In this document: piece after piece, positions 18,086-46,200 of the stretch
Numbering within the stretch: position 1 is the first letter of the stretch
Layout: each line of letters begins with the position of its first letter
Assembly (NCBI GenBank): GCA_029010575.1
Contig: JAQXKS010000061.1
Span: 20,580 to 84,579, forward strand
DNA: 64,000 bases
Direction: 5' to 3'
Origin: Bacteroidales bacterium
GTDB lineage: Bacteria; Bacteroidota; Bacteroidia; Bacteroidales; UBA932
The notes under the pieces: model-generated
Seen by the model: the letters and a program-made list of their open reading frames with translations, nothing else
Told to the model about the DNA's origin: nothing
Database searches by the model: none
Position numbers and translations under genes: made by a program

Positions 18086-18087
18086 TG

Positions 18088-23456: not shown

Positions 23457-24148
23457 TAGTTCATCGCATCTACGGTTGCAGTATCAAGCCTTAGTTGTAT
23501 GCCATTGGTATCGAAATCAAATCCGGCTGAAATGACTGGAGTACCATCTTCGCCAAATTCGCGGGCCAGTACAGAAGCCAAGTCCGTGCCCAATATGTTG
23601 CTCTTTGTCCAACGAATTAGGCCCACCCCATTAACAGGGTAGCGATAATTATTGGTTGGAACACAAGCAAGCATCAAATTAGCATTCTGTCGATTTGCTT
23701 CAATAACATTAAAATCACTTTCAGCTCCGGAATACAAAACAACATCCCCCTTGTCAAAAATAAGATGAAACGAATTTTCTGAAATTTTTCGCAACTGGGA
23801 GGCAAAGGCATTGACCGTAAATTCTTTTCCAAAAGGAACAACCTTGGCCAAAAACCAATCCGAGCCATTAGTAGGATTCTGAAGATATTCCGAAGTGGTT
23901 TCGGAGTATATCCTCTTGACGCGAAGATAGAATTCCTTGTATTTCCCAGTATAAGGAATGACGCAAGAAATTCCATCCCGGCGAATGACATCTACGGGTA
24001 ATGTCGCTGGAACCTCGACTTCTCCATATATATACCTGGAAAGGCCATCGGGGTTCGATACCCATGAGAACGGATAAAGTGTAACCTTATTTTGAGAGGT
24101 TAAAGTAATATCTCCGGTCTGAATATGTATTTCAATATCTCTGCGCAT
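23456..24148 (-). CDS. hypothetical structural protein
   Basis: ORF. The track start 24166 is TTG; ATG 24148 gives a TAATG overlap with the upstream stop. Confidence 0.35.
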   Translation of the reverse strand: MRRDIEIHIQTGDITLTSQNKVTLYPFSWVSNPDGLSRYIYGEVEVPATLPVDVIRRDGISCVIPYTGKYKEFYLRVKRIYSETTSEYLQNPTNGSDWFLAKVVPFGKEFTVNAFASQLRKISENSFHLIFDKGDVVLYSGAESDFNVIEANRQNANLMLACVPTNNYRYPVNGVGLIRWTKSNILGTDLASVLAREFGEDGTPVISAGFDFDTNGIQLRLDTATVDAMN

Positions 24149-26868
24149 TATGTTAATGTTTTCCAATTAGTGCCACTATTATTAGAATACATAATTCCAG
24201 CACCTGTTATTTTGAATTTGAATCCAGAAAATGATATTTCAAATCCATTGTCAGTAAATATCAAGTATCCATAAGAGTTTTTATGTAATACTCCATTCTT
24301 AAAAATGGCTGTTCCCATAAATTTATTTTCACCATCACTCACTGCTCTCTTGTATGAAAAATTGGTCATGTTCATTGTGAAATAGTCATCGAACACCCAA
24401 TCTGCATCTTCAGCTGGATAGGAAGCTCCGTTCACTGGCCTAATTAAGCTTAAATCATTGCCAGAAAGCATGTGATCCATATCATGAGGATTCACAAATA
24501 AGCGTAATCTTTCTGCTATAACTTCTATTGAAAATATTCCACCTTCTGAGACCGTTATTTCATTATTAGGTAATGATAAATTGAATGTAGTGCTTGGTTG
24601 GGAGCCTCCGCCCTTCAACTGAGATGATCCCTCAAAAATATTTGTGTCGGAACCCAGTGTAGCAAAATACTTCCCATTACGCAATAGCCGTATTTGTAAC
24701 TTATTTATCTCCCAATCGACAGAATATAAATTAGATGTATTATATTCTCCAAGGCCATCTTCAATTGGCAAAATAAAGGGGTACACCCAATCCAATAATA
24801 CACTTTGTGAAAATGTAATTACAGACCGAGCACCAAAATATCCAAGCGGCAAAGTAAGAAAAACTGCATTATCCCAATAATATTCCCATTCCTCGTCCTG
24901 ATAACGCTCTGGAATTACCTCTATCGCTGATTCTAAGCTTTTATTAAAACTTTTGCCATTAACAGTAGTGGGAATATTATAAGCACGATCTTCAGCTACA
25001 CTTGACAATTCTTCACCTTCGCAATTGGAGATAATCAAATCAAGATTATTGTCTGAATATGCCTCAATTCCATTGTCTAAGAATGACACAAAACGGCGAT
25101 GTGTTTCGTCTCCATTAACAATTTCAGCACTTTTAGCATGAAATTTATAAGCATAACAGTTACCATCTTGCAAGACTCTAAAATCAGCGGAAGCCCTATC
25201 TTCAAACGAGGAACCGGCCCAAAATCTCACAGAATCCTCTAAAGCTCCTTCAGCAGACATTCCTGCTTTAATAACGCCCTCAGAATTTCTGGCCATAATT
25301 GTTTTGGAAAGTAATACTCCGATATTAGAGACATTATCATCTACTATCAAAATATTTCCAATATTAACAGAGCAACTATCGCCATTTACTGTCCACGCAA
25401 TTCTCCCGCCCGCAAGTTTTCCACTACCATCTGCATTTAGTCCCCACTTATATCCGTAAATTCCTGTGCCAGTAAGAACCATCGAATTAGCTGTTGTGGT
25501 AAATCCATCCTGGACGGTAGCATTACCTGTCCATATAGCCGTATTACTAAAACTCCATCCGGCTATCTGATTGCCACCCGTTCCCATCTTAAATACCGTT
25601 GCGCCATCGACAACGCCCGCCAACTCCACAACTCCAGATCCAGCCTTGATATATGCTCCAGTACCGGCATTTATATGGGCTGAGAGACCGGAACTGGCTA
25701 CTTCACTAATATCATCTGCACTGAAATACACTCCAGCATTATTAGTTTGGTTAGTTAATGTTACATAATTACTAACCAAAGAATTAACATCAAAAGTCCA
25801 TCCAGCTATCTTATTAACATCACCCAGCTTAAATACCAGTTTGGTTTCCCCATATACTGCTGGAAGATAACCCTCTATACCATAGGCATTTGCGGAAGTA
25901 TAGAACATACTAATACCTCCAGATGTTTGAACTATATTGCGATGTGAATATGTATTATCAGCAAGATTAGCGTTAGTTATTTCAGCTGGGCCTAATCCTA
26001 TGTAATTAGTTAATGAATCAAGTAAAATATGGTTCTTCCAAATTGCCCTGGAAGCGATATTCCATCCAGCTATTGAACCACCTTCAGCTGTAATAGAACC
26101 TTTGAATGATGCAGAACCATCGGCGTGGAATAACACATTCCCCTTTGCGAATGTAGCCTCTCCCGTTTTGTATAATCCGTAAATTACTTCATCGTCAGAG
26201 TTCAAAGAAATAATTGAACCCTCAGACAAAATACGCAATTTCCCATCTGAGGTGCTGATTCCTCCGTTCTGAATATTCCAGCCGCCTATAGAGCCTCCGA
26301 TTTCATTCAAGTGGAATATTTCCTTCCCAGCTTGATAACCATAAATACCGGCCCCGTTTGCATCCGGCCCAACATAAACTCCAGTAAGGCTATTATCCGC
26401 TTCTTTCTTGCCAGCAAAAAATTTAGGTGTAATTATGTACTCACTTCCGATTTGAGTCTTGCGAGTTTCCCAGTCCTGAATCCATGCAAGCATCGTACTT
26501 TCCCTCTCAACGCTGAACACAAATGTGGGTGTCATAATCAGGCTGTCATAAGTAACCTGAATTTGAATAGAACCGTTAAGTATCGTTGAAGGTAAGTATG
26601 TGATAAAAAGCCTTTGTGTAAAGAAATTGACTGTTTGGAAAGCGCAAACAATTTCAGAATCGCTTTTTGCAATAACAGATATATTGCTGGGAGTGATCGG
26701 CAGCTTGACATTGCCACGGATTACATTGATGTCCGTAAAGGCCGTATTGAGTATTGGATTACTGCCATCGTAATCTGCATGTATGACGCATGAGCTTGGA
26801 CTCAGAAGCACTGAGCAAGCGTCATTAACTGATGTCAGGGTGATACCACCTTCAGCAAGAATAGCCAT
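24148..26868 (-). CDS. large tail fibre protein with repeated (I/F)(A/G)GW motifs
   Basis: 906 aa with five spaced motifs: GGSIGGWNI, GGSIAGWNI, NKIAGWTF, GNQIAGWSF, GGRIAWTV. CTATTCTTCA box 14 nt upstream of the ATG. Confidence 0.5.
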   Translation of the reverse strand: MAILAEGGITLTSVNDACSVLLSPSSCVIHADYDGSNPILNTAFTDINVIRGNVKLPITPSNISVIAKSDSEIVCAFQTVNFFTQRLFITYLPSTILNGSIQIQVTYDSLIMTPTFVFSVERESTMLAWIQDWETRKTQIGSEYIITPKFFAGKKEADNSLTGVYVGPDANGAGIYGYQAGKEIFHLNEIGGSIGGWNIQNGGISTSDGKLRILSEGSIISLNSDDEVIYGLYKTGEATFAKGNVLFHADGSASFKGSITAEGGSIAGWNIASRAIWKNHILLDSLTNYIGLGPAEITNANLADNTYSHRNIVQTSGGISMFYTSANAYGIEGYLPAVYGETKLVFKLGDVNKIAGWTFDVNSLVSNYVTLTNQTNNAGVYFSADDISEVASSGLSAHINAGTGAYIKAGSGVVELAGVVDGATVFKMGTGGNQIAGWSFSNTAIWTGNATVQDGFTTTANSMVLTGTGIYGYKWGLNADGSGKLAGGRIAWTVNGDSCSVNIGNILIVDDNVSNIGVLLSKTIMARNSEGVIKAGMSAEGALEDSVRFWAGSSFEDRASADFRVLQDGNCYAYKFHAKSAEIVNGDETHRRFVSFLDNGIEAYSDNNLDLIISNCEGEELSSVAEDRAYNIPTTVNGKSFNKSLESAIEVIPERYQDEEWEYYWDNAVFLTLPLGYFGARSVITFSQSVLLDWVYPFILPIEDGLGEYNTSNLYSVDWEINKLQIRLLRNGKYFATLGSDTNIFEGSSQLKGGGSQPSTTFNLSLPNNEITVSEGGIFSIEVIAERLRLFVNPHDMDHMLSGNDLSLIRPVNGASYPAEDADWVFDDYFTMNMTNFSYKRAVSDGENKFMGTAIFKNGVLHKNSYGYLIFTDNGFEISFSGFKFKITGAGIMYSNNSGTNWKTLT

Positions 26869-26901: not shown

Positions 26902-27291
26902 CTACTCTTTGTTTGGCGTTGCAAGTGTTAAATCGGTGTCAGCTGTAATCGTTCCATCCACAAAAGCATGGGCAATGCTTTTGGCGTATGCACGAAATTC
27001 CTGCATTTTATGGAATTCAGCCAACACTTCTGGATCCTCAGGCTCCAGAAGATAGTTATTGATGATTGCTTGCATCTCATTGGCATCGTACTCATTGTTA
27101 ATCAATGCGCTGACTGCGGATCTGTAATCGTTACATCCAGCTGGAAGTGATGCAGAGGCCCAACGGTATTTGTTGTTCTCATCACCATTGACCATTTCCA
27201 GATGATAATTCAAAGTGTACACAGGCATTCCAAGATGCCTCAATACTACAACTGCTTTAGGAATTTCATTTCCCTGATTCCAAGTTTTCAT
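26902..27291 (-). CDS. hypothetical protein downstream of DGR RT
   Basis: 129-aa ORF with TAATG overlap to the RT stop. Confidence 0.4.
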   Translation of the reverse strand: MKTWNQGNEIPKAVVVLRHLGMPVYTLNYHLEMVNGDENNKYRWASASLPAGCNDYRSAVSALINNEYDANEMQAIINNYLLEPEDPEVLAEFHKMQEFRAYAKSIAHAFVDGTITADTDLTLATPNKE

Positions 27292-28745
27292 TATCTCAAT
27301 ACTCTGTATTTTAGTTTATACTTATTCTTCAGTTTAATGCACTGGAAGTGGCCAGATACATAGCAATACTTCCAAAACCATTTCTTGTTTAACAATTCTG
27401 ATGAGCGTATGGCGTAACTGTTATCGTGAACCATACCTCCCAGATAAGAATTTAAGCTGCACACATCGTGTTCCAATAGTTTGGATTGCATCTTGGTGGG
27501 TTCGTGTCCGCTACAAGCCAAATCAAAACAGAATTCGTCAAACTGTTTGAGCTTATATTTCATTGAGGCTACACTGCGATTTGATATGTATAACCTATTA
27601 GGTTTCAATACACTACCAACAAAAGCAACTCCCTTTTTAACATCCTGGATGTAAACTTTATCTGCATGTAATGTCAAATGCAAGTGTTCCTTCAACCAAA
27701 GAATAGCCTCTTTACGAATCTGTTTGATTATTTCCTTGCCATCAAATTCATCAGTAGTTGGAACAACTATGCTAAAATCATCGACAAATCTGATATATTC
27801 GCCTCCGTATTCCTTCAGTTTATGCAATATCCATTCGTCAAAGAAAGACATATAATAGTTCGCAAATAACTGACTCGTCAAATTACCAATTGGCATTCCG
27901 ATAGTGTCCGGAGCATTAAAAAGACTTTTTCTGGGATCCAGATCATCCCAGAGTCTTTCATTACCACGCTTGACGCAATATTTTTGTGGGCAGTGCATAA
28001 TGATTTTCGTGCACACATAATGAAGGTCTTCTTTATCTTCACCAATATATTTTGAATCAATGAGGTCTGAAATCATTGACTGCAAAATATTCTTATCAAT
28101 GCTCATAAAGAACGCCTTCAAATCAAACTTCCCAATATATGCCTGGCGTGTATAGTTTTGAGAAACTTTCTTGATTTTGTCCTGTAATGTTTGTACGGCA
28201 TGTAGCGTACCATAGCCAACACGACAGTTAAATGAGACATCGCCCTGAGAATGGAACCGTTCTTCGAATAAAGGGTTTAGCCTCAAACATGCCCAATGTT
28301 GGACAATACGATCACGAAAATTCGCGGCGAATACCTCCCGGAGTTTAGGGCGCGTAACTACAAAACATATACTCTTGCTTGGCTCATAGGTGTGAGACTT
28401 AACTTCTGCGGCAAGAGTGATGAGGTCATCCTCATATATTGCACGATAAAAAGTACATTGCCCGCTGGATTTCTTCTTTTTACAGCAATCCTCAAAGGCA
28501 TCTATCCAACATTGTATTTCCTTATCACTAAGTGCCGCGACTGCCCTCACATAGTTGTTGTTGTACTTGTTGTTGTTGTTCAAGTTACCATTGCTGAAGT
28601 TCATGTTCCACGCGTTGTTGGAGTTGTACTCCGAGGAGGCCGCTAATGCGTGCACTATCTTATTCTTAACTAACGCCGAAACGCCAGTGGCACGCCCATT
28701 TAATAATAAAGGAAAAGCAATACTCATAATCGTGATCAATCGCAT
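27291..28745 (-). CDS. DGR reverse transcriptase (start uncertain; reading frame contains TR)
   Basis: REVFAANFRDRIVQHW, PIGNLTSQLFANYY (DGR-type [I/L]GxxxSQ), and YIRFVDDFSIV (YxDD-class catalytic motif). Candidate starts are ATG 28745, ATG 28727 or TTG 28805. Confidence 0.85.
   Translation of the reverse strand: MRLITIMSIAFPLLLNGRATGVSALVKNKIVHALAASSEYNSNNAWNMNFSNGNLNNNNKYNNNYVRAVAALSDKEIQCWIDAFEDCCKKKKSSGQCTFYRAIYEDDLITLAAEVKSHTYEPSKSICFVVTRPKLREVFAANFRDRIVQHWACLRLNPLFEERFHSQGDVSFNCRVGYGTLHAVQTLQDKIKKVSQNYTRQAYIGKFDLKAFFMSIDKNILQSMISDLIDSKYIGEDKEDLHYVCTKIIMHCPQKYCVKRGNERLWDDLDPRKSLFNAPDTIGMPIGNLTSQLFANYYMSFFDEWILHKLKEYGGEYIRFVDDFSIVVPTTDEFDGKEIIKQIRKEAILWLKEHLHLTLHADKVYIQDVKKGVAFVGSVLKPNRLYISNRSVASMKYKLKQFDEFCFDLACSGHEPTKMQSKLLEHDVCSLNSYLGGMVHDNSYAIRSSELLNKKWFWKYCYVSGHFQCIKLKNKYKLKYRVLR
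28533..28641 (-). repeat. DGR template repeat (TR)
   Basis: 109 bp, 96/109 identical to 29259-29367. All 13 differences are A on the coding strand in this copy. Encodes an Asn(AAC)-rich peptide. Confidence 0.9.
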
Positions 28746-29155
28746 TGCTGCCGCACAATCTCCCCTCTGCCTTCGGCAACCAGATTTTTTGTTTTGCGTT
28801 CCCAACCTCCCAATTGTCGGCTAATACTTTCAATTTGGGTGAGATACGCACTTTTCTGTTTAAGACTCAGGATTCGAATATTCCCTGTCGAAGAATATTC
28901 GACAAACGCGTCCATAATAGATTTTACATCCTCCATAAATAAAATTACAGATTCGATAATTTCTAACCGAGTCTTAGCATCCGAAGTTTTCAGGGCCAAC
29001 CGAACACCACACTGGGCTTCATTGACATCCCTGATCAGTTTCCTCCCCAACTCATCGAGTGAGCGGGAATTCTTTGGGAGCCTATCGCACATCGGGATTA
29101 TCCATAGTTGGAATTGTTCCAGTTCCCGACCTACTGAACTTTGTGTTGCCTTCAT
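28736..29155 (-). CDS. avd: DGR accessory variability determinant (Avd-like)
   Basis: 139-aa predicted helical protein between VR and TR ending ..SISRQLGGWERKTK. Position and size are typical of Avd. Confidence 0.7.
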   Translation of the reverse strand: MKATQSSVGRELEQFQLWIIPMCDRLPKNSRSLDELGRKLIRDVNEAQCGVRLALKTSDAKTRLEIIESVILFMEDVKSIMDAFVEYSSTGNIRILSLKQKSAYLTQIESISRQLGGWERKTKNLVAEGRGEIVRQQCD

Positions 29156-29198
29156 GCGAACAATGTACTATATCGTGTGTATAATATTTTTCTATATT

Positions 29199-29224
29199 GC
29201 ACCGCCGCGTCAAAGCGGCGGTGC
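29199..29224 (-). promoter_or_regulatory. perfect 10-bp GC-rich hairpin downstream of VR (DGR target-recognition hairpin and/or terminator)
   Basis: gcaccgccgc (29199-29208) and gcggcggtgc (29215-29224) are exact reverse complements, with a 6-nt loop. Confidence 0.6.
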
Positions 29225-29252
29225 GTAATAACAAAGAGCTACCACCCAACAG

Positions 29253-32200
29253 CTAAAATGCCGCGACTGCCCTCACATAGCTGATGACGCACTTGCCGTA
29301 GTTGACCAAGGTACCATTGCTGAAGTACATGTCCCACGCGTTGTTGGAGTTGTACTCCGAGGAGGCCCAATACCACGAACCCCAATCACTCAATAATCCA
29401 GCAGCTTTGGCTTTAGCAAAAATGGCATGTGGTGTACCAACAGTATAACCCTTGCTATGATACCAATACATTCTGGCCAACTCTCCAGCACTCGGTAAAT
29501 ACCACTTATGAGCTTTGAATTTATCAGACAGAATTTCCCCTTGTCGCGTTACTGTAGGCTGATATGCGTAACAATACGAAGCTGCGGGGTAATAATACTG
29601 ACGATACTTTGCGACATTATCATTAGCTGCAATTACAGCTGCAATCAAAGTATCAAGATTTTCTTTCTCAGTTTGAGTGGAATTAGCTCCAGGAATAGGC
29701 AGATTGATACCGCTATCATTCAAAATATGGTTGCGGTGATTAATAATCTTCAGTGTTTTGGCCATACCACTTGGAATCTTATCGCCTACGGCATAAGGCC
29801 CAAGTTCCTCTGTCAAAGTTACCAGTCGAATATCTCCAGCCGCAACAGTATCTGCAAATATCTTGAAGCCCTGGGAGTCACCAGTATTTGTTTCATCACG
29901 GTAGTTTTCATCGGTCACATAACTTGTGGCCATACCACCTGATGTGATATTGGTAATTGTAACCAAATCATAAACACTATATGAAGGATCATCGCTAAGG
30001 GTAATGCCAGCCAATCCATTAGTAGCATCATTGTATAAACCCCATGCTGTTGGAGCTACCGCATCCTTCAAAGCCACCATCCTACGATCAGTTGGATCAT
30101 CGGGATTAATATAGAAACAGATTCCAATCACCGTTTTGTCTAAATCCAAATCATCAGAGTATGAGCCATCAGCATATACATAATCGCCAACTTCTGCGGG
30201 GCGATCATAAATACCGACTGATTTAGATGCACTAATTGTTGAATACGAGCCATTTTCCAAACATTCAACTTGTGCTTCAACTGTAATGAAGTCGCGCTCA
30301 CTGGAAAGGGACTGTACATGCAAGATACCCGATGCTGAATTCATTGAAATTACTCCATCCAACGAAGGTTCTGTCGCATGCCAAGTAATTTTAGTGAAAT
30401 TATTAGCATATTTAGACGATGGAGACAATGTATAAGGATAGTCCTTGTTAGCCTCATGCGTATAGGTATTACCTGCTACATTAACGCCAGTCAAGAATGT
30501 TTTGTTGTAGTGCATCAAAAGCCCAGCATATTCTGGAGAATTTGCATCATCAACATTGCCCCACTTTTGCAATATCTTGATCTTCATTGCAAAAGTAATG
30601 GTTGATTGCACACCCGTTTCAGCCATTGTTATTTCTCCGGCCAAATTACAATTAGGAATCGTTGTTAGCCAATTAAGCATATTTGTAGATGCAGCTGGCC
30701 AATTCAAATTCTCTATTTTGATTGTAGAAATTGGAGCATTGGCATTATAGGCCCCAAATACCATTGAATAAGTATTAAAAGAACCAATGTTTCGACCAAT
30801 TTTGATAGATGATAAATATTCATATCCGTCCAAAGTTAATGAACTCAGATTTGGAACATTATCAATACTCAACAATGTCAATTTGGCGGGCAACTGGACA
30901 GTTGTCAGATTCTCAGACTCAGGCAGTGTAACTTCTACGAAGCTTGTACCAGAAAGTTTAATTGTATTGGCTCTAATCAACTTACTTCCATCAAACGAAC
31001 CGCGAATACCAACGCATCCATTCAAATTGATTGAATTCAATCCTGTTGCGTTATCAATTACAAACTGCTGAGGGCGGAATGCTGGTACTTGTTCACCTGT
31101 TTCCTGGTCTGTATAGAATATGGAAGGATTAGCTATAAAAGAAGTCAAACGCTTACCCTGAAGGGTGAAGGTTGAATCTGCCTTACAACTAATATTTCCC
31201 ACATTGCCGAAACTACGATAATAGTTGGATGCAAAAATTGCCACGCCGGTATCACCATTTACATTACCCAAATTGAAATGATATGTTTCACCAGGAGCAA
31301 GTCTCACATGAGGATCAATAGTATTGCCTCCGATATTGGCAGTAGGATAGATATACTGATGAGGTGTGATGTCAATGGCATAAGCAGCCGTTGTGCCATC
31401 CGGATTCGGATACCCTTGGAAACCAAATGAAGCAGCGGTATCATCAAGACCAACCGAACCAGTAGTTGCATATTCAAAATCACCCCAGCGTGCATACGAT
31501 GCGGCATATACAAGCCTACGCTTCATATATTGTTTTTCGGATTCTAACTGATCGCCAAGAGACTGAGTAAGAGGAGGCACAGCACGGCCACCCGTTGAAA
31601 CAAAACCAAGAGATGCTGGGTATTCGTAACGGATACGGGCCTGTTCATTCCAAGCAATAGCTGGGAAGTATCTTTGGACATTGAAGAAATACTTATGGAG
31701 GAATCCCCAAGGAGTAGTTTTCTGCGTCTGGGTGAGATCTCCCAGGTCATCGTTAGCACTTACCAAACTACACATTGCAGTAAATATGGAGTGCATCATG
31801 TCCTGAAGTTCGCGGGTGTTCTCATACATTAATTCACAAAGATTGAACAAGGTATTTGCCCCACCTTCATAAAGTGAAATGTTGCTACCTTCCGCATACG
31901 GGTGCATACGGTCAATGTAATACGGCTTAGTATTGCGACCTGTATTATCAGTAGGCAAGATAGTATCAAGGTCATCCTGATGCAGCTCAAATAGTTTAGT
32001 GGCCGGATCGATGACATAATAGGTATTTTTCGAGCAGTTGTCCGTTCCAGCGAGGAAGAAGTTTACATACGCATAATGGAATTGGAGGGAGCGTACATTA
32101 AAATGACTTCCGATATTTTGTTTGGCATGTACCACCAAGGCATCAATAAAGGCTTGATTCAAAGTTGCATAGTTACTTTGGTTATCGGCGGTAATTGCTC

Positions 32201-35200
32201 CAGAAGTAATCGGATCAGTCTGAAGATTACGAACTTCATAAGCTCCAGACTCAGGTGTGCCTTTCCACATACCAGCATGAACCCAAGTTTCCGTCACCAT
32301 ATCATAACGGAACAAGCAATACTTATAAGTACCTTGGGTGAGCCAGTAAGCCATTGTTTGATCAAGGGCCGTATCAACCATAAAGTTTTCATAAGTATTG
32401 TTATAATAAGTTATTCGAGGGTTATGCCAATAAAGGAAATTCCAAGCTGCTGAAATCAAAGCTACTGTGGAATCTATTGGAACCTTAACCCCATCAACCT
32501 TGTGCGTCATGGATTTGTCAAGGTCAATATTAACCGACTCTGCATCAGGATAGCCCCAACCATCTACCTCTCCATCTGAAACATGCGCCTTAACATTGTG
32601 ATCCCAAGGAACACGCATATCTGTAAGCGGGTAGTTATTCTCAGCACCCTCAATCATACAAAAATCAGTATGTGCTGAATTCTTTTTGTCGAATCCCCAA
32701 GTAACATCATCCATCTTGCCAGGGCCAAATGTACATGCCCCACGATATACCGGTTCATCGGTTTCTTTCTCCTGTACAAAGAAGAAGAATGGCTCCGTAT
32801 ATTTAGCGACTCTCGCCTTGTTAGCAGAAGTCTGAAGGGAATTACGACCAACTACAGCGGTATGGAGATCGTTATAAGAACTTACACCTCCGCAAAGATG
32901 ACTGTGCATCGATGAAGCATAATTAATCTTGTTGACCATCTTCTGACCAAGGGGAACGCTCGCCGCAACTTGATAACCATTACCACGATACATTCCATTG
33001 CCATCAATCCAACCATCTACAACATTGATAGATTCCCCATCTTCATTGATGCTGTATGTACCGCTTATGTTGCCGCCCGTAAGAGTAACTGTTCCATCTC
33101 CATTATTTACAACGGTGATAGAGTTGTGAATCTTTGATAACAAAACAGGTATCTTAAACTCAACATCCTTAATTTTGGTCTGAAGGTTGGAATAAAAGTA
33201 TGTGTTTGCCGTAGAGCCTTGACGAGATACCACCAGACAAGATACGCTGTTGTCTTCCAGATAAGCAAGATAGGAATCCTTACAAATTGTACCTGAATAT
33301 TCAGGTAAATAGTTGCCGTTAGAATCATACTGATAAATTTCCCAATAGCCCTTCTGCTTAGACGAAAGCATCTGATACGGTTCTACACCATGCCAGATAA
33401 GCACACGCTTGCCATTGCCACGCACACCAGCTACAGAAATCAATCCGGTTGCTTCATCAGTGATTGCATTTTCTTTGCGGACTTGCAATTTATCGGCAGA
33501 AGTAGGCAGCGTAGCAATATAGTTCTTTATAATATTGGTAGCTGAAAGCTGTTTATTCGTATAACATCTCAGCGAATATATATCAATGTCAGCAGAATCA
33601 GAACCGATAACGATACCCCCGTTGCTCAATGCTGCTGAGCAGAATTCATTGTAACGATTGGTGGCGAACTGGAACTCACGATTAACCTTGCCGTTAATGA
33701 GTACGCGCACCAAACTCATAGGGGTGGCTCCGGTCTGGGCAACGACTGAGTGGTTGATATTGATGCTGATATGTGTTCGTACATCTTCACGCCAAGACCA
33801 ATCCTGCTGTGCTTCTACATTGTTTGATGTAGTAAGCAAGAAACCCCTCATTGCATTCATACGAAGGCCTATCATCGTACCGGCAGCATTTGTTTCGTTG
33901 ATTCCCAAGATCTGATTGTTCTCAGGATCCGTTACATTGCGCACTTTGAAGTCCATTTCAAAAGTCATGGATGATTCAGGGTTACTCAGATATTGTGCGA
34001 ATGGATTATACTCAATAGTTATCCTTTGCCCGGCCAATACTCGCAATACTTTCTGGCTGTCATCGCTACTTACAATCCATCCATCATTTACACCTGAAAA
34101 ACCTACCCAAGTAGAAGGAATAACCGCATTGTTATTGCGAGCATTTAGAATTCTCTGATAGTTGGCTTCAGAATTGTTACGAACTTTCGGATTAAGCAAG
34201 AAAGTGGAACCGCTGGTAGGTGCAAATGAATCAGAGTTATCTACCGTAATACTCACCATGTCGCTGCCAGTGGAATCAGCCAAAATGTCTGACTTACCAA
34301 CAACTTCACCATCTATGTTGGTAATCATACGCCATACATGCAAATATGCGTCATAGCTGGATGCTTCTTCTGCACTTTCAGAAGCGGGTTCGATTTCCAC
34401 CGTCACATTCAAATCATTTCGCGTATTAGTATGCACGATTTCCTCCACTCTTAGATACTCTACCAAATTAGCATCTGTCATAGCATCCTCAGAATAGTTG
34501 CTTATGATAAAAGCCAAATTCAAGCTGGCCTCTGTATCTAAAACAATTTGACCATTATCATCAATCTTCGGTACGAAAATGGCATAACCACAAAGAGATG
34601 TCTGTACATAATTGACTACCTCACTCTTCATCTCTTGAAGCATCAGATAGGATTTTGTACGCTGGGCTTCAGTTGCTGTTTCATTGTTAATGACCATAAA
34701 ACGATTGACCAGCAAATCACTGGAAATCGTATTGCCATCACCATCCTCGCAAGTCAGCCAGGCGGTCACGGTATGAACTCCATGTGTCAAAATGCCATAT
34801 CCAGTTTGCTCTGCAATCACGCGGGCAAAGTTTTCAGTAGTATATTGTGTAGTCCCCAACTCATATTCCAATATCAGATCCTGTGTAAAACCAGATATTT
34901 TTACATGAAGGGTTTTGTTTACTGCACCATAAACCTGATAGGCAAACGAGAAGCCTCCATCAGCCGCATTAATAGGCACATTGTAATTTTGCTGATTGAC
35001 AACATATAATGAAGTCAATACGATACTACTGAAGACCAATCGTCCAGTAACCCCCGTTTCAAGACCTGTGGCCTGAATACGCACTTGGTTCGAACCGGCA
35101 GAAAGATATTGGGTAATGTCATACTCAGTATAGCTATTAGGGTTATCCGGATCAAAGGTAAATCCCTGTGTTGAAGCCTGGAAGGAACCCTTAGTTATCC

Positions 35201-35573
35201 ATTCACCTACAGAATACACCTGTATCTGTACATTTACTATTTCAGCAGTATCAGAGCCACCTTGCACTGAAGTGAACCTCAAATGCACCTTAGCCTTGCC
35301 ATCAGTTTTGATAATACTGTCCGTATTATCAGGTGTCAGGATAGACACTGTTGTATCAGCACCCGGAAGAGTGATGATATTATTGATAGGATCGTAAGGC
35401 GTTGTTCCCTGTACCACTCGGTAAACCGCCTTGCGCTTCACTTCAATCATATCATTCTGCAACTCTATAGCTGCATTGATAAGAGTATTGAACTCTGCGG
35501 CTGACAGTTTACCGGCTGGGGTTGTACCGCCGTTTTCGACCTTACCAAGTAAGTGAGAAATGTCGATTGCCAT
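29253..35573 (-). CDS. giant multi-domain tail fibre / adhesin, DGR target (CotH-like region, LRRs, C-terminal DUF1566/C-type-lectin-like VR domain)
   Basis: 2106-aa ORF. GTDNCSKNTYYVIDP..ELHQDDLDT (CotH-like). NLTTVQLPAKLTLLSIDNVPNLSSLTLDG (LRR). HKWYLPSAGELARMYWY..WYWASSEYNSNNAW (DUF1566-like), ending in VR. Confidence 0.75.
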   Translation of the reverse strand: MAIDISHLLGKVENGGTTPAGKLSAAEFNTLINAAIELQNDMIEVKRKAVYRVVQGTTPYDPINNIITLPGADTTVSILTPDNTDSIIKTDGKAKVHLRFTSVQGGSDTAEIVNVQIQVYSVGEWITKGSFQASTQGFTFDPDNPNSYTEYDITQYLSAGSNQVRIQATGLETGVTGRLVFSSIVLTSLYVVNQQNYNVPINAADGGFSFAYQVYGAVNKTLHVKISGFTQDLILEYELGTTQYTTENFARVIAEQTGYGILTHGVHTVTAWLTCEDGDGNTISSDLLVNRFMVINNETATEAQRTKSYLMLQEMKSEVVNYVQTSLCGYAIFVPKIDDNGQIVLDTEASLNLAFIISNYSEDAMTDANLVEYLRVEEIVHTNTRNDLNVTVEIEPASESAEEASSYDAYLHVWRMITNIDGEVVGKSDILADSTGSDMVSITVDNSDSFAPTSGSTFLLNPKVRNNSEANYQRILNARNNNAVIPSTWVGFSGVNDGWIVSSDDSQKVLRVLAGQRITIEYNPFAQYLSNPESSMTFEMDFKVRNVTDPENNQILGINETNAAGTMIGLRMNAMRGFLLTTSNNVEAQQDWSWREDVRTHISININHSVVAQTGATPMSLVRVLINGKVNREFQFATNRYNEFCSAALSNGGIVIGSDSADIDIYSLRCYTNKQLSATNIIKNYIATLPTSADKLQVRKENAITDEATGLISVAGVRGNGKRVLIWHGVEPYQMLSSKQKGYWEIYQYDSNGNYLPEYSGTICKDSYLAYLEDNSVSCLVVSRQGSTANTYFYSNLQTKIKDVEFKIPVLLSKIHNSITVVNNGDGTVTLTGGNISGTYSINEDGESINVVDGWIDGNGMYRGNGYQVAASVPLGQKMVNKINYASSMHSHLCGGVSSYNDLHTAVVGRNSLQTSANKARVAKYTEPFFFFVQEKETDEPVYRGACTFGPGKMDDVTWGFDKKNSAHTDFCMIEGAENNYPLTDMRVPWDHNVKAHVSDGEVDGWGYPDAESVNIDLDKSMTHKVDGVKVPIDSTVALISAAWNFLYWHNPRITYYNNTYENFMVDTALDQTMAYWLTQGTYKYCLFRYDMVTETWVHAGMWKGTPESGAYEVRNLQTDPITSGAITADNQSNYATLNQAFIDALVVHAKQNIGSHFNVRSLQFHYAYVNFFLAGTDNCSKNTYYVIDPATKLFELHQDDLDTILPTDNTGRNTKPYYIDRMHPYAEGSNISLYEGGANTLFNLCELMYENTRELQDMMHSIFTAMCSLVSANDDLGDLTQTQKTTPWGFLHKYFFNVQRYFPAIAWNEQARIRYEYPASLGFVSTGGRAVPPLTQSLGDQLESEKQYMKRRLVYAASYARWGDFEYATTGSVGLDDTAASFGFQGYPNPDGTTAAYAIDITPHQYIYPTANIGGNTIDPHVRLAPGETYHFNLGNVNGDTGVAIFASNYYRSFGNVGNISCKADSTFTLQGKRLTSFIANPSIFYTDQETGEQVPAFRPQQFVIDNATGLNSINLNGCVGIRGSFDGSKLIRANTIKLSGTSFVEVTLPESENLTTVQLPAKLTLLSIDNVPNLSSLTLDGYEYLSSIKIGRNIGSFNTYSMVFGAYNANAPISTIKIENLNWPAASTNMLNWLTTIPNCNLAGEITMAETGVQSTITFAMKIKILQKWGNVDDANSPEYAGLLMHYNKTFLTGVNVAGNTYTHEANKDYPYTLSPSSKYANNFTKITWHATEPSLDGVISMNSASGILHVQSLSSERDFITVEAQVECLENGSYSTISASKSVGIYDRPAEVGDYVYADGSYSDDLDLDKTVIGICFYINPDDPTDRRMVALKDAVAPTAWGLYNDATNGLAGITLSDDPSYSVYDLVTITNITSGGMATSYVTDENYRDETNTGDSQGFKIFADTVAAGDIRLVTLTEELGPYAVGDKIPSGMAKTLKIINHRNHILNDSGINLPIPGANSTQTEKENLDTLIAAVIAANDNVAKYRQYYYPAASYCYAYQPTVTRQGEILSDKFKAHKWYLPSAGELARMYWYHSKGYTVGTPHAIFAKAKAAGLLSDWGSWYWASSEYNSNNAWDMYFSNGTLVNYGKCVISYVRAVAAF
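29259..29367 (-). repeat. DGR variable repeat (VR), last 37 codons of the 2106-aa ORF
   Basis: Counterpart of TR. It differs only at TR-adenine positions. The stop codon lies 3 nt after the repeat end. Confidence 0.9.
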
Positions 35574-39795: not shown

Positions 39796-40739
39796 TATTT
39801 CTGCACTAATACTTTATTTGTCAAGAATCCGCTATGAGCAGCCTTGAAACTTTGAATTTTCGCTTTAAGGGCAATAAAATTAGGAACCTGATTTATCATT
39901 GGTTGCGGGCCAAGTTGTGTGGTTGTTTGACCTTGGGCAAGATACCCCAAGAAATCCATCAATATATCGGCAAGTTCCCCTCCCAAAACCGCATCATCTG
40001 TACCGCTGGTAGAACCGAGATATACAGTTCCATCTTCAATTTGGACTTTCGATTTACCCTTTTCTAATACAGACTTATCATTGTCCAGTATCATCTTTGA
40101 GTCATCGTGCTCTATTGAAACACCATCTTGATTGATGATTTGCTTACTCTTATCATCGCCAGAAATGATCTCAAATTTCTCAGTATCAATTGTCTGAGTG
40201 GTGGTATTATCTTCTCCGTCTGTAACTTCAGTCGTAATGGAATCCTTTTGGTATTTAGTAACTGCATGGACACCGGTTTCTGGCAGTTCGTTGATGTCAT
40301 CTCCGTCCTCACTGCTCTCATCAAACTCTTCACGCTTCTTAACTCCAATCGTAATCGTATCGTGAGAATCAAGTTGCAAGACATCCACATGAGAAAACAT
40401 TGTGACATATTCCAAGTTGGTTACTGGATCCTTCGCAATCAAGACATCAGAATATAATTTAGGGACAACAAGTAGTCCAGTGTTACCCTGGATGGCACTC
40501 AACAATACGCCCTCATGAATATTGCCCCCTTCCTCTGATAAAATGGTGTTACTGTATTCTTTGACATCTACGGTTCCAGCCATTTCATCGTCCAAATGCA
40601 CCTTAACTACATAACCGCTTACGCCCTCATTACTATAGGTAGTATTAGTTTTGGGGTTAATAACACCATGTAAAGCTATCTTTTGGATAGCTTCACGAAT
40701 GGTAGTATTGGCATTTAATCCTGATTGTACTTTACTCAT
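39795..40739 (-). CDS. putative baseplate spike/hub-associated protein
   Basis: 314-aa ORF following the hub-like gene. Position only. Confidence 0.3.
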   Translation of the reverse strand: MSKVQSGLNANTTIREAIQKIALHGVINPKTNTTYSNEGVSGYVVKVHLDDEMAGTVDVKEYSNTILSEEGGNIHEGVLLSAIQGNTGLLVVPKLYSDVLIAKDPVTNLEYVTMFSHVDVLQLDSHDTITIGVKKREEFDESSEDGDDINELPETGVHAVTKYQKDSITTEVTDGEDNTTTQTIDTEKFEIISGDDKSKQIINQDGVSIEHDDSKMILDNDKSVLEKGKSKVQIEDGTVYLGSTSGTDDAVLGGELADILMDFLGYLAQGQTTTQLGPQPMINQVPNFIALKAKIQSFKAAHSGFLTNKVLVQK

Positions 40740-42192
40740 TCTTCTTGTCTCGTGATATACAGTATGGCATTTTTAATGTCTGACGATAACCATTAACCCC
40801 AAATTGTGTCGTGATTTCATCTATTAAATAATAGCCGTTTTTAGCTGGATAGCGGTTATCCAGCAAATGAACTTTTGTACCCGATTTCAGGCCTAAATCA
40901 CCAAAAATAGTAAGAGTGCCCTCAATTCCATTGGCATTATAGCTTTCGAAGTATTTGATTGCTTCAACTTGCAAATCTTCGTGACTAATGCCAATTTTAC
41001 TGGAAGCATAGGGGATAATGGTGTAGGTACTCAAATCCACCTTATCCTTCGATTTCCCTAACACTGTTGCCCCTGCTTTCATTGCCTTCTTAGAAATGGT
41101 AGTCTCGTTTAGGATTTGATACTTTTCATTGCCTTTAGAGGCATCATATTCAGGATTCTTTCTAACGGTAATATGATATTGCTTTCCCTTGCTTCCCTCT
41201 ATGTTTTCCCAAGACATTGCATCTACAGCCAAAAATGCCTTATCTACATCCATCATAGTTAAACCGTTATTGGCTACATGGTAATCAAACAGTATTTCTG
41301 GGATAACACTACTCTCTTCTTTTAACTTCAGTATCGAGTCATCTTCAAGATTGGAAAAGTATGAACGCCCTACCGCAAGACATGGATTTCCATTTCCATC
41401 GGCTTTGATAAAAGAGAATAAACGGGCTTTCTTAGCCCAAGTTGTCAATACATCCGCAACCGTAAGATTATCTTGGATAACCGTCTTGCCCAGATTGATT
41501 TCACAGCTTTTTGTCTTCGGATGTAATTTAAGACCGGACTTTTCCAACAGCTTGTATTTTCCATCTTCAGCCAACAAATCATTTACCGTCAGGTTCTTAG
41601 TAGGAACAATCTTTGGGCAAGTGATTTTTTTCAAATAACTGGCAAGATCTTCACATTTCAACTCAATCGGTTCATCAATACTGCATTTGACAATATAGCC
41701 ATCAAACATAATGGCACTGCCATTTTGCGGAGCCATCGCCTGTTGATAATCAGATAAAGTCTGCTTGTCATTGAAAATGGTTTTTCCAGTAGAATTGGTC
41801 TTGGCCATTTTTGCAATAGATGGATCCGTGATATAGCCCATCCTAATTCGGATGCGCTGTCCAACCTTAAAATTGGCAACCGTAGCTTTTGAAGTATTGG
41901 TACGAGTCGTAACCACTAATCCATTATCTTCTACCGTAGCATTAACAGAAGTGGCATTATCCTTCAAATTAATTTCTGTAATGGTTTTACGAATGACAGT
42001 GCCACGCGGGAATTTTACAGTAGCAGTGCTAAATAAATTCTTATAAGAATCATGAATTTCAATCTCCTCCACCTCAGTAATCATCATAGGGGCTTCCGGC
42101 TCGTTAATCATATTCTCCGAGTCAGAAGCGTCCCAAATCTGAATGAGGCAAGCAAGTATGACGAAATCTGGTTTATTAGGTTTTGCTGCCAT
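40732..42192 (-). CDS. putative baseplate hub protein (gpD-like by position)
   Basis: 486-aa ORF two genes after the tape measure. Position only. Confidence 0.35.
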   Translation of the reverse strand: MAAKPNKPDFVILACLIQIWDASDSENMINEPEAPMMITEVEEIEIHDSYKNLFSTATVKFPRGTVIRKTITEINLKDNATSVNATVEDNGLVVTTRTNTSKATVANFKVGQRIRIRMGYITDPSIAKMAKTNSTGKTIFNDKQTLSDYQQAMAPQNGSAIMFDGYIVKCSIDEPIELKCEDLASYLKKITCPKIVPTKNLTVNDLLAEDGKYKLLEKSGLKLHPKTKSCEINLGKTVIQDNLTVADVLTTWAKKARLFSFIKADGNGNPCLAVGRSYFSNLEDDSILKLKEESSVIPEILFDYHVANNGLTMMDVDKAFLAVDAMSWENIEGSKGKQYHITVRKNPEYDASKGNEKYQILNETTISKKAMKAGATVLGKSKDKVDLSTYTIIPYASSKIGISHEDLQVEAIKYFESYNANGIEGTLTIFGDLGLKSGTKVHLLDNRYPAKNGYYLIDEITTQFGVNGYRQTLKMPYCISRDKKNE

Positions 42193-42195
42193 TTT

Positions 42196-43293
42196 CTAAA
42201 TATGATTTGAAAACCACAATAATTTCTTGCTGCGATTGCTATCAGATTTACCACTTTGTGCCTGTTCCTTCTTCTCATTTAACAAAGCCTGATACCACCC
42301 CTCCATTTCGCTACCGGCAAGAACATCATTAATTAACTGAATGGTATCCTTGACGATGGTGACATCTTCATCAGGCTCAACTGCAATTACTGACATTGAG
42401 TATGGCTGTTCGTTTTTACATTCTTGGATTCCCAACTTAAAATCCTGTATAATGACTTGTGTAACGCCGAACTGCTTAAAAAGAAGGTGATTAACTTTAA
42501 CTACTCCATTGTATTGGCATAACTGGATAAGCTTTTTAACAGCACTCTCAGGATATACTCCATCCTGATTTGAATTGACTGTACCGTTGATCGTGAAACA
42601 TATATCACCTCCAGATACAAGTTCTTTGCGAGTAAAGTCACGCCCTTGTACTTTAGTCAACACAATATTTTTAGAAGTGGTCTGAGAGACCTGGGCGGTC
42701 ACATCATAGAAAACTAATGTCTTTGTTTTAATTACATCTTTCTTTCCATTCTGTAACCTTTCATATTCAATACTTTCCTCTGTATCATAATACAGCATCA
42801 ATGCCTCTGGAACTAAAGTACCATAAGCATCAACAGCAGTAATCGTATTTCCCCCTTCGACATTAACTTGTCCCAATCCCTTATCTACAGTTTCTCGATT
42901 CGCAATGATACTTTGCATGTTTTCTTCTTGCTTCTTGCGCATCTCGTTAGCCTTCTTGCGGCCATCCTGTATTTCTTTTTGTCTGGCTTCCGAATCCGCA
43001 ATAGCCTTTTCAACAGCCTTTCTTACCTTCTTGTGGCCAAAGACATATTGAAGTCCATATCTTGCTTCTGTTGCCGCAAAATCGGCTATCATATTTGCAT
43101 AATGCTCAGCCAACTGAAAGCCTAATTGTTTTGCAGTATGAATCAATATGGATTCATAGGCACGCTTGCTCTGATAAACAAGTATGCCATCCCTTTGTTC
43201 AACAAAACGGGTATAGAAACCACGACTGGAAAGTATGTTATCGGTAGCCCTACCCAGACTTACACCGACCTGTGACCATGGATGAAAAGCCAT
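42196..43293 (-). CDS. hypothetical tail/baseplate protein
   Basis: 365-aa ORF immediately after the tape measure gene. Confidence 0.35.
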   Translation of the reverse strand: MAFHPWSQVGVSLGRATDNILSSRGFYTRFVEQRDGILVYQSKRAYESILIHTAKQLGFQLAEHYANMIADFAATEARYGLQYVFGHKKVRKAVEKAIADSEARQKEIQDGRKKANEMRKKQEENMQSIIANRETVDKGLGQVNVEGGNTITAVDAYGTLVPEALMLYYDTEESIEYERLQNGKKDVIKTKTLVFYDVTAQVSQTTSKNIVLTKVQGRDFTRKELVSGGDICFTINGTVNSNQDGVYPESAVKKLIQLCQYNGVVKVNHLLFKQFGVTQVIIQDFKLGIQECKNEQPYSMSVIAVEPDEDVTIVKDTIQLINDVLAGSEMEGWYQALLNEKKEQAQSGKSDSNRSKKLLWFSNHI

Positions 43294-43299
43294 TGTTTA

Positions 43300-46200
43300 C
43301 TATGTTAAATTACTTGCGTTTGCATCAAAATCTGCTACTACATCAATAAGGGCCTGAGCCATTTGCTCTTTCAGATTGTTGACAGTTGCAGCTACATTTG
43401 GATCAGACATATTTACTGATTCAACATTCATTAAATTCTCAATCTTTACGATGATTTGCTTAGGAGTAGCTGAAGTGGATTTATATTGATTGCTATAACC
43501 CGCATTTCCTCCAGTAGTAGTCGTAGTAGAAGTTGCACTGAATCCAAGTTTTGCATTCATCTGAGCATTTGATAAAGATGGAAGGCCAGTTGGAGAAGGA
43601 GGAACCCAAGCATTACCATCCCATTTATAAGTAATGCCATCTAATGTTTTAGTTTCGCCCTTTTTCAATCCAACTTGTGCTTCTGGATGCCAAATGTCAT
43701 CACTGATGAAACTATTGAAATATCCCTGTAATTTAGGGTTGACTTGACGCACAATATCCAGAATTTGCTCGTGGAATTTCAAATACGCGGTACGAGCCTG
43801 ATCAGCAGTTAAGCTAATCTGTTGGCCCTGTGCATCTGTATAAGTAATGGCATGCCAAGCCCCTTCACTCCATCCAAATTTACTGAGCCATTCAGGTGAA
43901 GCAAATGTTCCATATTTACTGGAATCCATAATATCTACACCGCTCTTTACGAGAAAGGCTTGCAGCAAACTCTGTGGAATTTCCTTTCCACTGTCACTTA
44001 ATCCAAGAATCTGTTTCCAGAGCGCAATTCTATCATCAGGTTGAAAAGCATTGCGAATAGCCTCAATCTCAGCCATCACAAAATGATAGCCTCTTTGGTT
44101 AGTAGAAAGAGGGTTGTTAGCGACAGTATCTAAACTCCAATACTCAGAGCCTGGAATAATTGTGCTCTGCAACTGGCTAAGTGTAGATGCTAAATTGGCC
44201 GATACAGCATTATAGTCTTCAACCGTTTTAGCCTGTAAATAATTGGTCTGGAAGTTTTCAATAATGGATTTGGCCGCCGAACCCTTAGTCGTATCACGCC
44301 CCATTGAATAAAGAAAGCGTGCGGCGGCTGCGGCATCTAATACGGATTTGGCATCTTGACTACCCATGGCCTTCATTGTATAATCAACGCCATTAAATCT
44401 GTAGCCAATAGAATATTGATTTCCCCATCCTCCTGCACCAAATAGTTCGGTCATTGCTAACCCGGCATCAACGCCTTCATTACTTAAAGCCTGATTCCAA
44501 TGCCTTGGTAGAGTAGCAAAACCAAATTTGGTCATCAAATCTTTCAGGGGAGCACTGTATCGAGCAATGTTCTTTGTAGCTTCGCCTGATTCTTGCCCAG
44601 CCTCATCATTCAGGTCTTTCAGAAGGCCCAATTCTTCTTTACGAAGATTGACATATTCAGCCAGTGCAGTATTAGCATCTAACTGCTTATTATACACAAT
44701 GGACATATATTTATCAGCCATTGTAGCATATTCACTCATATTAATGCCATTCAAGTTTTGTGTGCTCTGATAAAAAGCATTAACTGCCTCCCCAGCCTGT
44801 TCAACACTGGCATAATATTTTGCTATACCATAAACAGCTCCAGCAGCTGCGGCCCCCAATCCTATGATTCCACCGGTGGTTGTGGCAAGCAAGCGGCTAA
44901 ATATACTTAACAACTTTGGCCCAAGCATCATGCCCAATAATCCACCAGAAACTGATCCAAATGTACTGGCCGCACTCCCTTCCTCACCAATCATAGAACC
45001 AAGCATCATTCCACCAATGCCACCCGTAATAGAAGCAATTCCACGCCCCATCATCATAAAAGGGGTTCCTGTATTTTGGCCATACATACCCATCCAACGC
45101 TGAACGGTAGCGGAAGAATATCCACGCCCTAATGCTGTAGCTTGAACTCGTAGGAATTGGGTATTCAAAGCTCCCATATTAGTTGTAGCCAATGCAATAG
45201 AGCGTGCGGCATTAAACATATATGCCGCAAAGTTTCTTACTGCGCTGATGACACGCAATGGAATTAATGTACCCTTTAAGTAAAGCTGTGCTTTCAGCCA
45301 AAATAAAATAACACCCTCAAATTGTTCGTAAAGGCGCATTAGTATTTTGGAAAATTCTATAAGCGTTTTACCAATCTCCATAATAGCATTACTCAATCTC
45401 TTGATTTTGTCAATTGCTTCTGGAGTTTTAAGCCAAGCAATAACCTTATTCATAATCTCACGAATAGGGCTTTCTTGTGCTTCAAACGCTTGCATACCAG
45501 CTTCTGTAAAAGATGATGTCAATTGATACCAAAGACCTTGTATTGTATTCTTCTTCTCTTCAGCTAACTTTGCAGTCACACCATCAGATAAAAAGTTCAT
45601 TCGAATCATCTCATTCCATTTATCAACATTGGCCGCAAGAGAAGCAGCTCCCTGCGTAGCTGTTTTATGGAAAAGAGAACCGAATTGTGTCAATGAAAGG
45701 TTCTTTGCATGCAAATCCTGGAAAATATCTATCAAAGGTCTGATATTTCCATTAGCATCAGTACGAGCAATACCCAACGCTTCCCACATTTCGCGTTGGG
45801 CTTTTGTTGGCTTGGCTATATTCAGGGCCAATGTACGCATTGTTGTACCAGCCTGAGAGCCTTTTATACCCGCATCACCCAAGATACCGATTGCAGCGGT
45901 TGCCTCTTCAAAAGAAGTTCCATTCAATGAAAGAAGTGATGCGGCATATTTATAGGATTCAGCAATCTCCATCAAGGTCGTATTAGACTTTGTGAAGGTC
46001 ATTGTCATTACATCTGCCGCCTGTCTTACCCGTTCTGGAGAAATACCATAACCCGTCATAATGTTGGTTACAACATCTGCGGTCTGACCTAAATCATTAT
46101 CTCCAACCAACGCAATATCTGCGATAGGGCGAATTGACTTGTTAATAGCATCCAAATCAAAGCCCGCCATAGCCAAAAATTTAGAAGCATCAGCCACTTG

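Follow-up and report, generated by a model that had tools for sequence, protein, structure and literature searches.

A diversity-generating retroelement with a 2106-residue tail-module target in a large contractile-tailed gut phage of Bacteroidales

We analysed a stretch of 64,000 nucleotides (nt) from an assembly of a Bacteroidales bacterium (GCA_029010575.1, contig JAQXKS010000061.1, positions 20,580 to 84,579), hereafter called the window, with positions counted from its first letter. A preliminary description of this DNA had claimed a complete diversity-generating retroelement (DGR) with the layout variable repeat (VR), hairpin, avd, template repeat (TR) and reverse transcriptase (RT). Every element of that layout is supported here, and we hold with high confidence that the locus is a bona fide DGR of the commonest architecture, with target gene and VR, hairpin, avd, TR and RT on one strand, carried by a gut phage that is large, has a contractile tail and is a relative of BS-TP1, a cultured Bacteroides phage. 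The cassette is made up as follows.

29253..35573, minus strand: DGR target gene, 2106 amino acids (aa), encoding in the tail/baseplate module a large protein of several domains that ends in a predicted Lcl_C/DUF1566 C-type-lectin-like domain
29259..29367, minus strand: VR, encoding the last 37 residues of the target
29259..29279, minus strand: GC-rich invariant 3' end of VR, resembling an initiation of mutagenic homing (IMH) element, TATGTGAGGGCAGTCGCGGCA, 21 nt, identical in TR at 28533-28553
29199..29224, minus strand: GC-rich hairpin/cruciform element, GCACCGCCGC-TTTGAC-GCGGCGGTGC, about 35 nt downstream of VR
28736..29155, minus strand: avd (accessory variability determinant), 139 aa, a predicted four-helix bundle encoded between the target gene and TR
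28533..28641, minus strand: TR, with 14 AAC codons and one AAT codon, and 35 adenines within the mutagenised span
27291..28727, minus strand: DGR RT reading frame; we count it from an ATG at 28727, which the closer relatives have in common and which lies 9 nt past the avd stop; the true start is uncertain

The cassette and its components

Read on the minus strand, TR (28641 to 28533) and VR (29367 to 29259) align without gaps over 109 nt at an offset of 726 nt (MAFFT and direct register comparison), and all 13 mismatches between them fall on TR adenines of the coding strand (7 A>G, 5 A>T and 1 A>C). As TR has 39 A in 109 nt, the hypergeometric probability that 13 of 13 mismatches hit A is 3.5e-7. 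All of them lie in codon positions 1 or 2, and together they change 10 codons and 10 amino acids within the last 37 codons of the target. The coordinates, the gapless 109 nt, the 13 mismatches at TR adenines, the 10 differing codons at the end of a 2106-aa open reading frame (ORF) and both translations had been given in the preliminary description, and the alignment confirms them; mismatches at non-adenine TR positions, which it had named as evidence against a DGR, do not occur within the 109 nt. The first non-A difference (C/T at 28532/29258) lies one base outside the block, at its boundary. The two copies are the sole long direct repeat detected by a repeat finder in 26-37 kb, and a degenerate TR pattern with every A turned to N matches TR and VR only in the 64-kb window, with 0 matches expected by chance, so that the window holds a single target. 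Most TR adenines occupy positions 1 and 2 of AAC codons, the others being in AAT and in single-A codons, and a stop codon can be reached by mutation of A from one TR codon only (AAG). The 35 mutable adenines confer a coding capacity of about 1.2e21 DNA variants and 2.9e20 protein variants.

The 3' flanks of the two repeats split directly past their 21-nt shared end, VR being followed by TTTTAG (Phe-stop) and TR by CTTAGT, and GCATTTTAG is kept after VR in all relatives. The hairpin claimed between VR and avd was found at 29199-29224, as a perfect 10-bp GC-rich stem with a 6-nt loop; the fold of the surrounding 93 nt has a z of -2.5 relative to shuffles. The element is identical in two contigs from a sister strain (L013 and L014, described below), and all related loci carry a perfect GC stem of 8-11 bp, 6-35 nt past their own VR. 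At the stem base there are compensatory changes among the window and two further relatives, L001 and L002. No comparable hairpin was predicted by RNAalifold in the ~140 nt past TR. The hairpin after VR has no T-run and was not called as a terminator, and a scan for promoters and terminators returned nothing above shuffles. Judged from the sequence, the locus has two of the features by which a DGR is recognised, namely a shared end of the IMH/IMH* type and a GC hairpin after VR only.

The frame downstream of TR had been described as an ORF with DGR-type RT motifs, and both PIGNLTSQ (which fits [I/L]GxxxSQ) and FVDD are indeed present. It scores above the gathering score for Pfam RVT_1 and matches phrog_1423 with an E-value of 4e-64; its best solved relative is the Bordetella DGR RT, bRT (8ub7, E = 2e-19), followed by a group II intron RT (1.5e-4). 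A cryo-electron microscopy (cryo-EM) study of bRT identified K29, F66, R74, I76, I181, G182 and Q187 as the residues contacting template base, deoxynucleoside triphosphate (dNTP) or primer, and D138, D215 and D216 as catalytic. In a HMMER alignment K29, F66, R74, D138, I181, G182, Q187, D215 and D216 are identical in the window RT, and I76 is replaced by V. The homology with bRT begins at about 28502, just past TR. The enzyme is an RT of the DGR type in which the template- and dNTP-contacting residues are kept. Assignment to group II intron, retron or defence RTs was rejected, with 72 bits versus 300 for NCBIfam group_II_RT_mat, 67 versus 390 for Drt2 and 46 versus 235 for retron St85. An overlap of 70 nt with avd also led us to reject a 504-aa ORF with a TTG start (27291-28805) as the RT gene model.

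In the Avd position the preliminary description had placed a 139-aa helical ORF. This is borne out by a nearly full-length match to NCBIfam DivGenRetAVD (profile positions 7-103 of 104, E = 9.2e-5, 22.7 bits versus a cutoff of 80), by an AlphaFold2 (AF2) model of four helices with a predicted local distance difference test score (pLDDT) of 88, and by structural superposition. With this model Foldseek retrieves the S23/IVS-family bundles 2gsc and 2rld, the Bordetella phage Avd 4dwl (TM 0.81 on target, root-mean-square deviation 2.6 A) and the Avd chains of 8ub7 and 8ub8.

The sequence leading into VR had been said to resemble a DUF1566/C-type-lectin fold. Pfam Lcl_C/DUF1566 (PF07603) matches target residues 2010-2103 at a sub-threshold level (E = 2.5e-5, 25.0 bits versus a gathering cutoff of 34.9), and 13 of 56 homologues of the C-terminal 400 aa have a precomputed PF07603 assignment. 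The AF2 model of the last 280 aa has a pLDDT of 96.7. Used as a Foldseek query against the Protein Data Bank (PDB), it finds the C-terminal domain of Legionella Lcl (8q4e) as best match, then invasin and snake-venom (snaclec) C-type-lectin-like domains. Its best viral match is a DUF1566 protein (E = 1.4e-18), with further phage DUF1566 proteins and a 'tail fiber protein' next. These matches agree with the fold proposed earlier, and by its predicted fold the domain is best called a divergent member of Lcl_C/DUF1566, the final strands of which, in the model, are encoded by VR. It belongs to the CLec2, or category 'd', class of Wu et al. 2018, exemplified by Legionella LdtA. The rest of the protein is far less informative. 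Residues 81-1185 match phrog_24896, of unknown function (E = 1.2e-65). Pfam gave no family besides the weak C-terminal match, leaving about 1800 of 2106 residues without functional annotation, and a PDB sequence search with the whole target gave no relative. Neighbours in the structure database BFVD that are named tail fiber or receptor-binding protein align with the C-terminal module only.

Transfer from template to variable repeat in related loci

A search with the Avd protein retrieved 88-90% identical proteins on the short ENA metagenome contigs L013 and L014, which carry the whole cassette of a sister strain, from VR and hairpin through avd and TR to the 5' part of the RT gene. Compared with L013, the window is 96% identical in TR, 90% in the avd block, 84-87% in the outer flanks (84-90% over the VR flanks) and 79% in VR, which makes VR the most divergent segment and TR the most conserved. 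Among the 23 differences between the two VRs, 19 lie at positions that are A in both TRs (P about 1e-10), and the other 4 at sites where the TRs themselves differ. At each of these 4 sites the VR follows its own TR: C/C in one strain and T/T in the other at one site, G/G and A/A at another, a TR C copied into VR at a third, and a TR A mutated in VR at the fourth. This tracking implies that transfer from TR to VR occurred after the strains diverged, and it indicates that the DGR has been active recently in this lineage. The preliminary description had proposed a test of whether population variation is confined to TR adenines, and at the level of strains the VR of L013/L014 shows such confinement.

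More distant loci have the same layout. Those with RTs 64% and 46% identical to the RT of the window show TR/VR differences only at A, as paired by our script. In 21 loci of the lineage at 46% we counted 5 different TRs and 20 different VRs; variation affects 29 of the 43 A positions, and non-A positions vary among the VRs only where the TRs themselves differ. We found no near-identical DNA to the window in the phage collection, IMG/VR or JGI metagenomes, and scans of IMG/VR and JGI metagenome contigs with VR/TR patterns (flank adenines degenerate, centre free) produced no matches and no extra VR alleles.

Some further features of these loci may be recorded. Most members of the 46% lineage (L016-L047) lie on human gut metagenome contigs of 150-600 kb, and the element is probably a widespread prophage. 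In L010 and L038 the 5' region of the RT gene is shortened or disrupted, and they may be degenerate copies. Short tandem-like repeats of ~45-60 nt that encode DGSG..GGKI.W occur in the relatives with 64% identical RTs, in the gene following the DGR (L001 7168-7392, L002 7166-7382); the counterpart of this gene in the window is 24148-26868.

Predicted RNA structure around the template repeat, and the frame of the reverse transcriptase

Comparison of the related loci points to RNA pairing on both sides of TR, in the following segments.

28697..28715, minus strand: part of the leader that separates avd from TR, forming the 5' strand of long-range RNA helix 1 (RNAalifold and pair counts)
28648..28695, minus strand: leader stem-loop with helices 2 and 3, directly upstream of TR
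28517..28534, minus strand: 3' strand of helix 1, made up of 2 nt at the end of TR and the 16 nt that follow, reaching into the RT coding sequence

Helix 1 would join 28697-28715 with 28517-28534 in 17 bp that bracket TR, and 7 of its pairs show compensatory changes. In helix 2 all 7 pairs are paired in 100% of cases and 4 have compensatory changes; the helix occurs in four fully complementary versions (GCGTGC/GCACGC, GCGCAC/GTGTGC, GCGTGT/ACACGC and GCCTGC/GCAGGC). Over the named structure as a whole, 92% of cells pair, versus 33-45% when the partners are slid by 1-3 columns, and 11 pairs show compensatory changes versus 2-4 in the slid controls; none of 500 shuffles reached the observed values. 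A thermodynamic duplex test of the leader against the post-TR sequence did not discriminate from shuffles, and the argument for the duplex uses covariation evidence alone. A search of Rfam at a permissive threshold over 27.0-29.7 kb gave no match. In the Bordetella system, cryo-EM work has given the name cPRT Stop to a duplex in which sequence upstream of TR pairs with sequence downstream of it, and such duplexes, averaging 13 bp, were predicted in 207 of 278 Avd-containing DGRs (bioRxiv 10.1101/2023.10.23.563531). We infer from the covariation that an RNA duplex brackets TR in the window, and that it may be the counterpart of the Bordetella avd:Sp 'cPRT Stop'.

The downstream strand of this duplex abuts TR and lies in coding sequence of the RT. 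There is no ATG, GTG or TTG from 28550, inside the 3' end of TR, to the bRT-homologous N-terminus of the RT. The RT frame is open upstream through TR to the ATG at 28727 in the window, and likewise in L013, L001/L015, L002, the L003 group, L039 and BS-TP1. In about six lineages, with RT identities as low as about 40%, insertions and deletions in this through-TR frame are multiples of three. Only phage F2 departs from the open frame: its TR lies in a separate ORF, and its RT has an ATG of its own in a different frame. Overlap of TR with an annotated RT ORF has already been recognised as 'group 3' of DiGReF (PMC3521204), so the overlap is not new in itself.

Substitutions by codon position are ambiguous on translation of the leader: they number 36/50/64 in the leader, with 21 synonymous and 76 non-synonymous, versus 90/51/216 in the RT body, with 169 and 78. 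From the ATG to TR the leader shows nucleotide conservation but lacks the bias towards third positions seen in the RT body, and the RNA helices explain this conservation better than translation does. Leader translation nevertheless keeps some plausibility from the open frame, from indels that preserve it and from some synonymous Leu changes. One might entertain, as a rather doubtful proposal, that a single reading frame, running through leader and TR into the RT core, serves this clade as both RT mRNA and DGR template RNA. If leader and TR were translated, the RT would gain an N-terminal extension of about 65-70 aa including an Asn-rich peptide encoded by TR, and the transit of ribosomes would melt the duplex between leader and post-TR sequence, leading to a competition, or a switch, between RT synthesis and mutagenic reverse transcription.

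About 45 nt past TR, at 28470-28490 (the codons of FEDCCKKKK), UGCUGU, ahead of an A-run, can pair with GCGGCA in the TR 3' end. For the L003 and L039 lineages, the best duplex with the TR 3' end falls at the alignment position that UGCUGU occupies in the window. One might speculate that UGCUGU and the A-run act as a primer strand like Bordetella Sp 47-56/A56, with a pairing that across lineages is only wobble-consistent.

If the cassette works as that of Bordetella does, the avd-TR-RT transcript would fold so that the leader:post-TR duplex and the leader stem-loop bracket TR. A complex of RT and Avd would self-prime on this RNA and copy TR with misincorporation opposite adenines. The resulting cDNA would take the place of VR under guidance from the hairpin and from the GC-rich IMH-like end that both repeats share, and TR would be spared because its 3' flank differs and lacks a hairpin.

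Phage context, known relatives and alternative readings

The window is phage DNA throughout, with portal, protease, capsid, sheath, tube, tape measure and baseplate-hub genes, among them the following.

40732-43293: baseplate-hub proteins
43300-46929: tape measure
48180-49508: sheath

Upstream of the target the order is baseplate hub, a 314-aa ORF without a family match, two ORFs with weak PHROG matches to tail fibre or tail protein, and the target itself; to the left of the DGR lie genes for replication and nucleotide metabolism. Genes for a SbcC-like nuclease, the anaerobic ribonucleotide reductase NrdD, thymidylate synthase and an NAD-dependent DNA ligase were also seen (9973-12300, 15878-18705, 58195-60132), a set that is expected for a large, fairly autonomous phage genome, and no tRNA genes were found in the window. 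The family A DNA polymerase appears to be split on the minus strand (461-5659), the ORF 3953-5659 corresponding to phrog_405 positions 37-440 and the ORF 461-2632 to positions 441-1068, with a Dda-like helicase gene (2622-3956) between the two and overlapping both ends. BS-TP1 has a like layout of polymerase next to helicase, at 73% identity.

BS-TP1 (PQ571274.1, 111.7 kb) is the closest cultured phage, with a major capsid protein 61% and a DNA polymerase part 73% identical, and the phage of the window is a large contractile-tailed gut phage related to it. In the same position BS-TP1 carries gp27 (2187 aa), a four-helix-bundle gene and an RT whose annotated ORF reads through TR; gp27 is homologous to the target of the window (27% identity over 2064 aa, E = 1e-158). 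Its leader, however, is unrelated to that of the window, and its own TR and VR align in two blocks with a 3-nt offset. Against the identities of capsid and polymerase, those of the RT (39.5%) and the target (27%) are low, which suggests a much higher rate of evolution in the DGR/target block than in the phage backbone, or exchange of the module of tail tip and DGR. According to the BS-TP1 paper (Gut Microbes 2025, PMC12694917), the DGR targets of these Bacteroides phages are unannotated multidomain proteins of ~2000 aa, probably tail-related. The size of the target, to which the preliminary description had drawn attention, is thus real but already described for BS-TP1 and other Bacteroides phages (PMC12694917).

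With the prototype of Bordetella phage BPP-1 (mtd-avd-TR-brt) the cassette shares gene order and strand, adenine-specific differences between TR and VR, the Avd bundle, an RT whose best solved relative is bRT, a GC-rich IMH-like end, a GC hairpin after VR and a duplex across TR. It differs in its target, which has 2106 aa and a DUF1566/Lcl_C (CLec2) VR domain, Mtd being absent among the structural matches, and in the hairpin loop, which in the window has 6 nt. It also lacks a non-coding spacer: the bRT-homologous N-terminus lies ~10 codons past TR, with the RT frame open through TR, and the downstream duplex strand starts at the end of TR instead of about 59 nt into the spacer. For the mechanism of DGRs the locus is thereby a natural case in which RT coding sequence has to carry the functions of the 'spacer' RNA. 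The RT has about 410-478 aa versus 328 aa for bRT.

The Bacteroides phages Bacuni_F1, F2 and F4 and Hankyphage p00 likewise have DGRs with avd, TR and RT, the RTs being 36-39% identical to that of the window. F2 also shows A-only TR/VR differences and a GC hairpin with a GAAA loop. These are 40-kb phages, however, the capsid protein of the window being only 31% identical to that of Hankyphage, and in F2 the VR ends an ORF of 762 nt (about 250 aa), far smaller than the target studied here. With the Legionella pneumophila DGR (LdtA) and the category 'd' CLec2 targets (PMC5758913) the window has in common a VR that overlaps a weak DUF1566-type match. The Legionella DGR is carried by an integrative conjugative element, and its diversified product is a surface lipoprotein (PMC5758913), whereas the element in the window belongs to a phage and has its domain attached to a giant structural protein. 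The cassette has architecture B (avd, TR, RT), in common with 68% of DGRs (Wu et al. 2018, PMC5758913).

Several points weigh against the reading of the locus as an active DGR that diversifies a tail protein. The Lcl_C sequence match of the target is below the curated threshold, and the PDB Foldseek E-value for this domain is weak (about 4e-3), though probabilities and TM-scores are good. Similarly, the Avd profile match is below its curated cutoff and the PDB Foldseek E-values run from 0.03 to about 1, again with good probabilities and TM-scores. The pairing script for related loci tolerated few non-A mismatches, which makes their 'A-only' pattern partly one of construction, and the per-position analysis of VR, which covers those pairs that the script extended over all 116 nt, is partly subject to the same selection. 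The RNA covariation was obtained by RNAalifold from 6 sequences of about 5 lineages. Current activity in the genome of the window is deduced from one sister strain and related lineages. As for the 'tail fibre' of the preliminary description, the 2106-aa ORF in the tail/baseplate module stands, but the label comes from gene position in that module only, and the bulk of the protein is without a characterised homologue.

These points bear on three other explanations. That TR and VR are an ordinary segmental duplication or gene-conversion tract, diverged by random mutation, has only the existence of a direct repeat in its favour, and it is refuted by the placement of all 13 differences at TR adenines and in codon positions 1 or 2, by the recurrence of the adenine pattern in every related locus examined, and by the DGR-type RT and Avd that flank the repeat. 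A fossil has also to be considered, a cassette that worked in the past and has since become fixed in this genome, with VR differences that are historical. The failure of the VR pattern to find further alleles in IMG/VR or JGI metagenomes would fit such a fossil, as would the RT genes of the related loci L010 and L038, disrupted or shortened in their 5' region. However, all components are intact and the catalytic residues conserved, the VR of the sister strain carries the non-adenine substitutions of its own TR, placing the transfer after the divergence of the two TRs, and between strains VR is most divergent (79%) and TR most conserved (96%), so that we consider a fossil very improbable.

More weight, though still that of an unlikely alternative, is to be given to the view that the target is some other surface-exposed virion or accessory protein, such as a glycan- or mucus-adhesion module or a baseplate decoration, the diversification of which does not serve host-range switching. 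About 1800 residues are without functional annotation, two neighbouring genes already bear weak tail-fibre or tail-protein signatures, and the C-terminal domain has its structural namesake in an adhesin, Lcl. Against it, the gene is placed within the tail/baseplate block, with the hub genes on one side and more structural genes on the other, some of its structural neighbours in BFVD bear the names tail fiber or receptor-binding protein, and the authors of the BS-TP1 study regard homologous targets as tail-related (PMC12694917). It is likely that what the DGR diversifies is a surface for receptor binding, at the distal end of a protein associated with baseplate or tail, and that the phage thereby tracks the variable surface structures of Bacteroidales.

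Both the cassette type and the class of giant targets were published for this phage group in 2025 (PMC12694917), and the locus is a well-supported but ordinary example of them, which leaves the picture of what DGRs are and how they work unchanged. The few DGRs known from large contractile-tailed Bacteroides phages gain in this locus a well-documented member, the value of which lies less in novelty than in unusually complete in-silico evidence, which combines strain-level activity with covariation for the RNA scaffold. For the biology of gut phages, the locus marks a likely determinant of host range.

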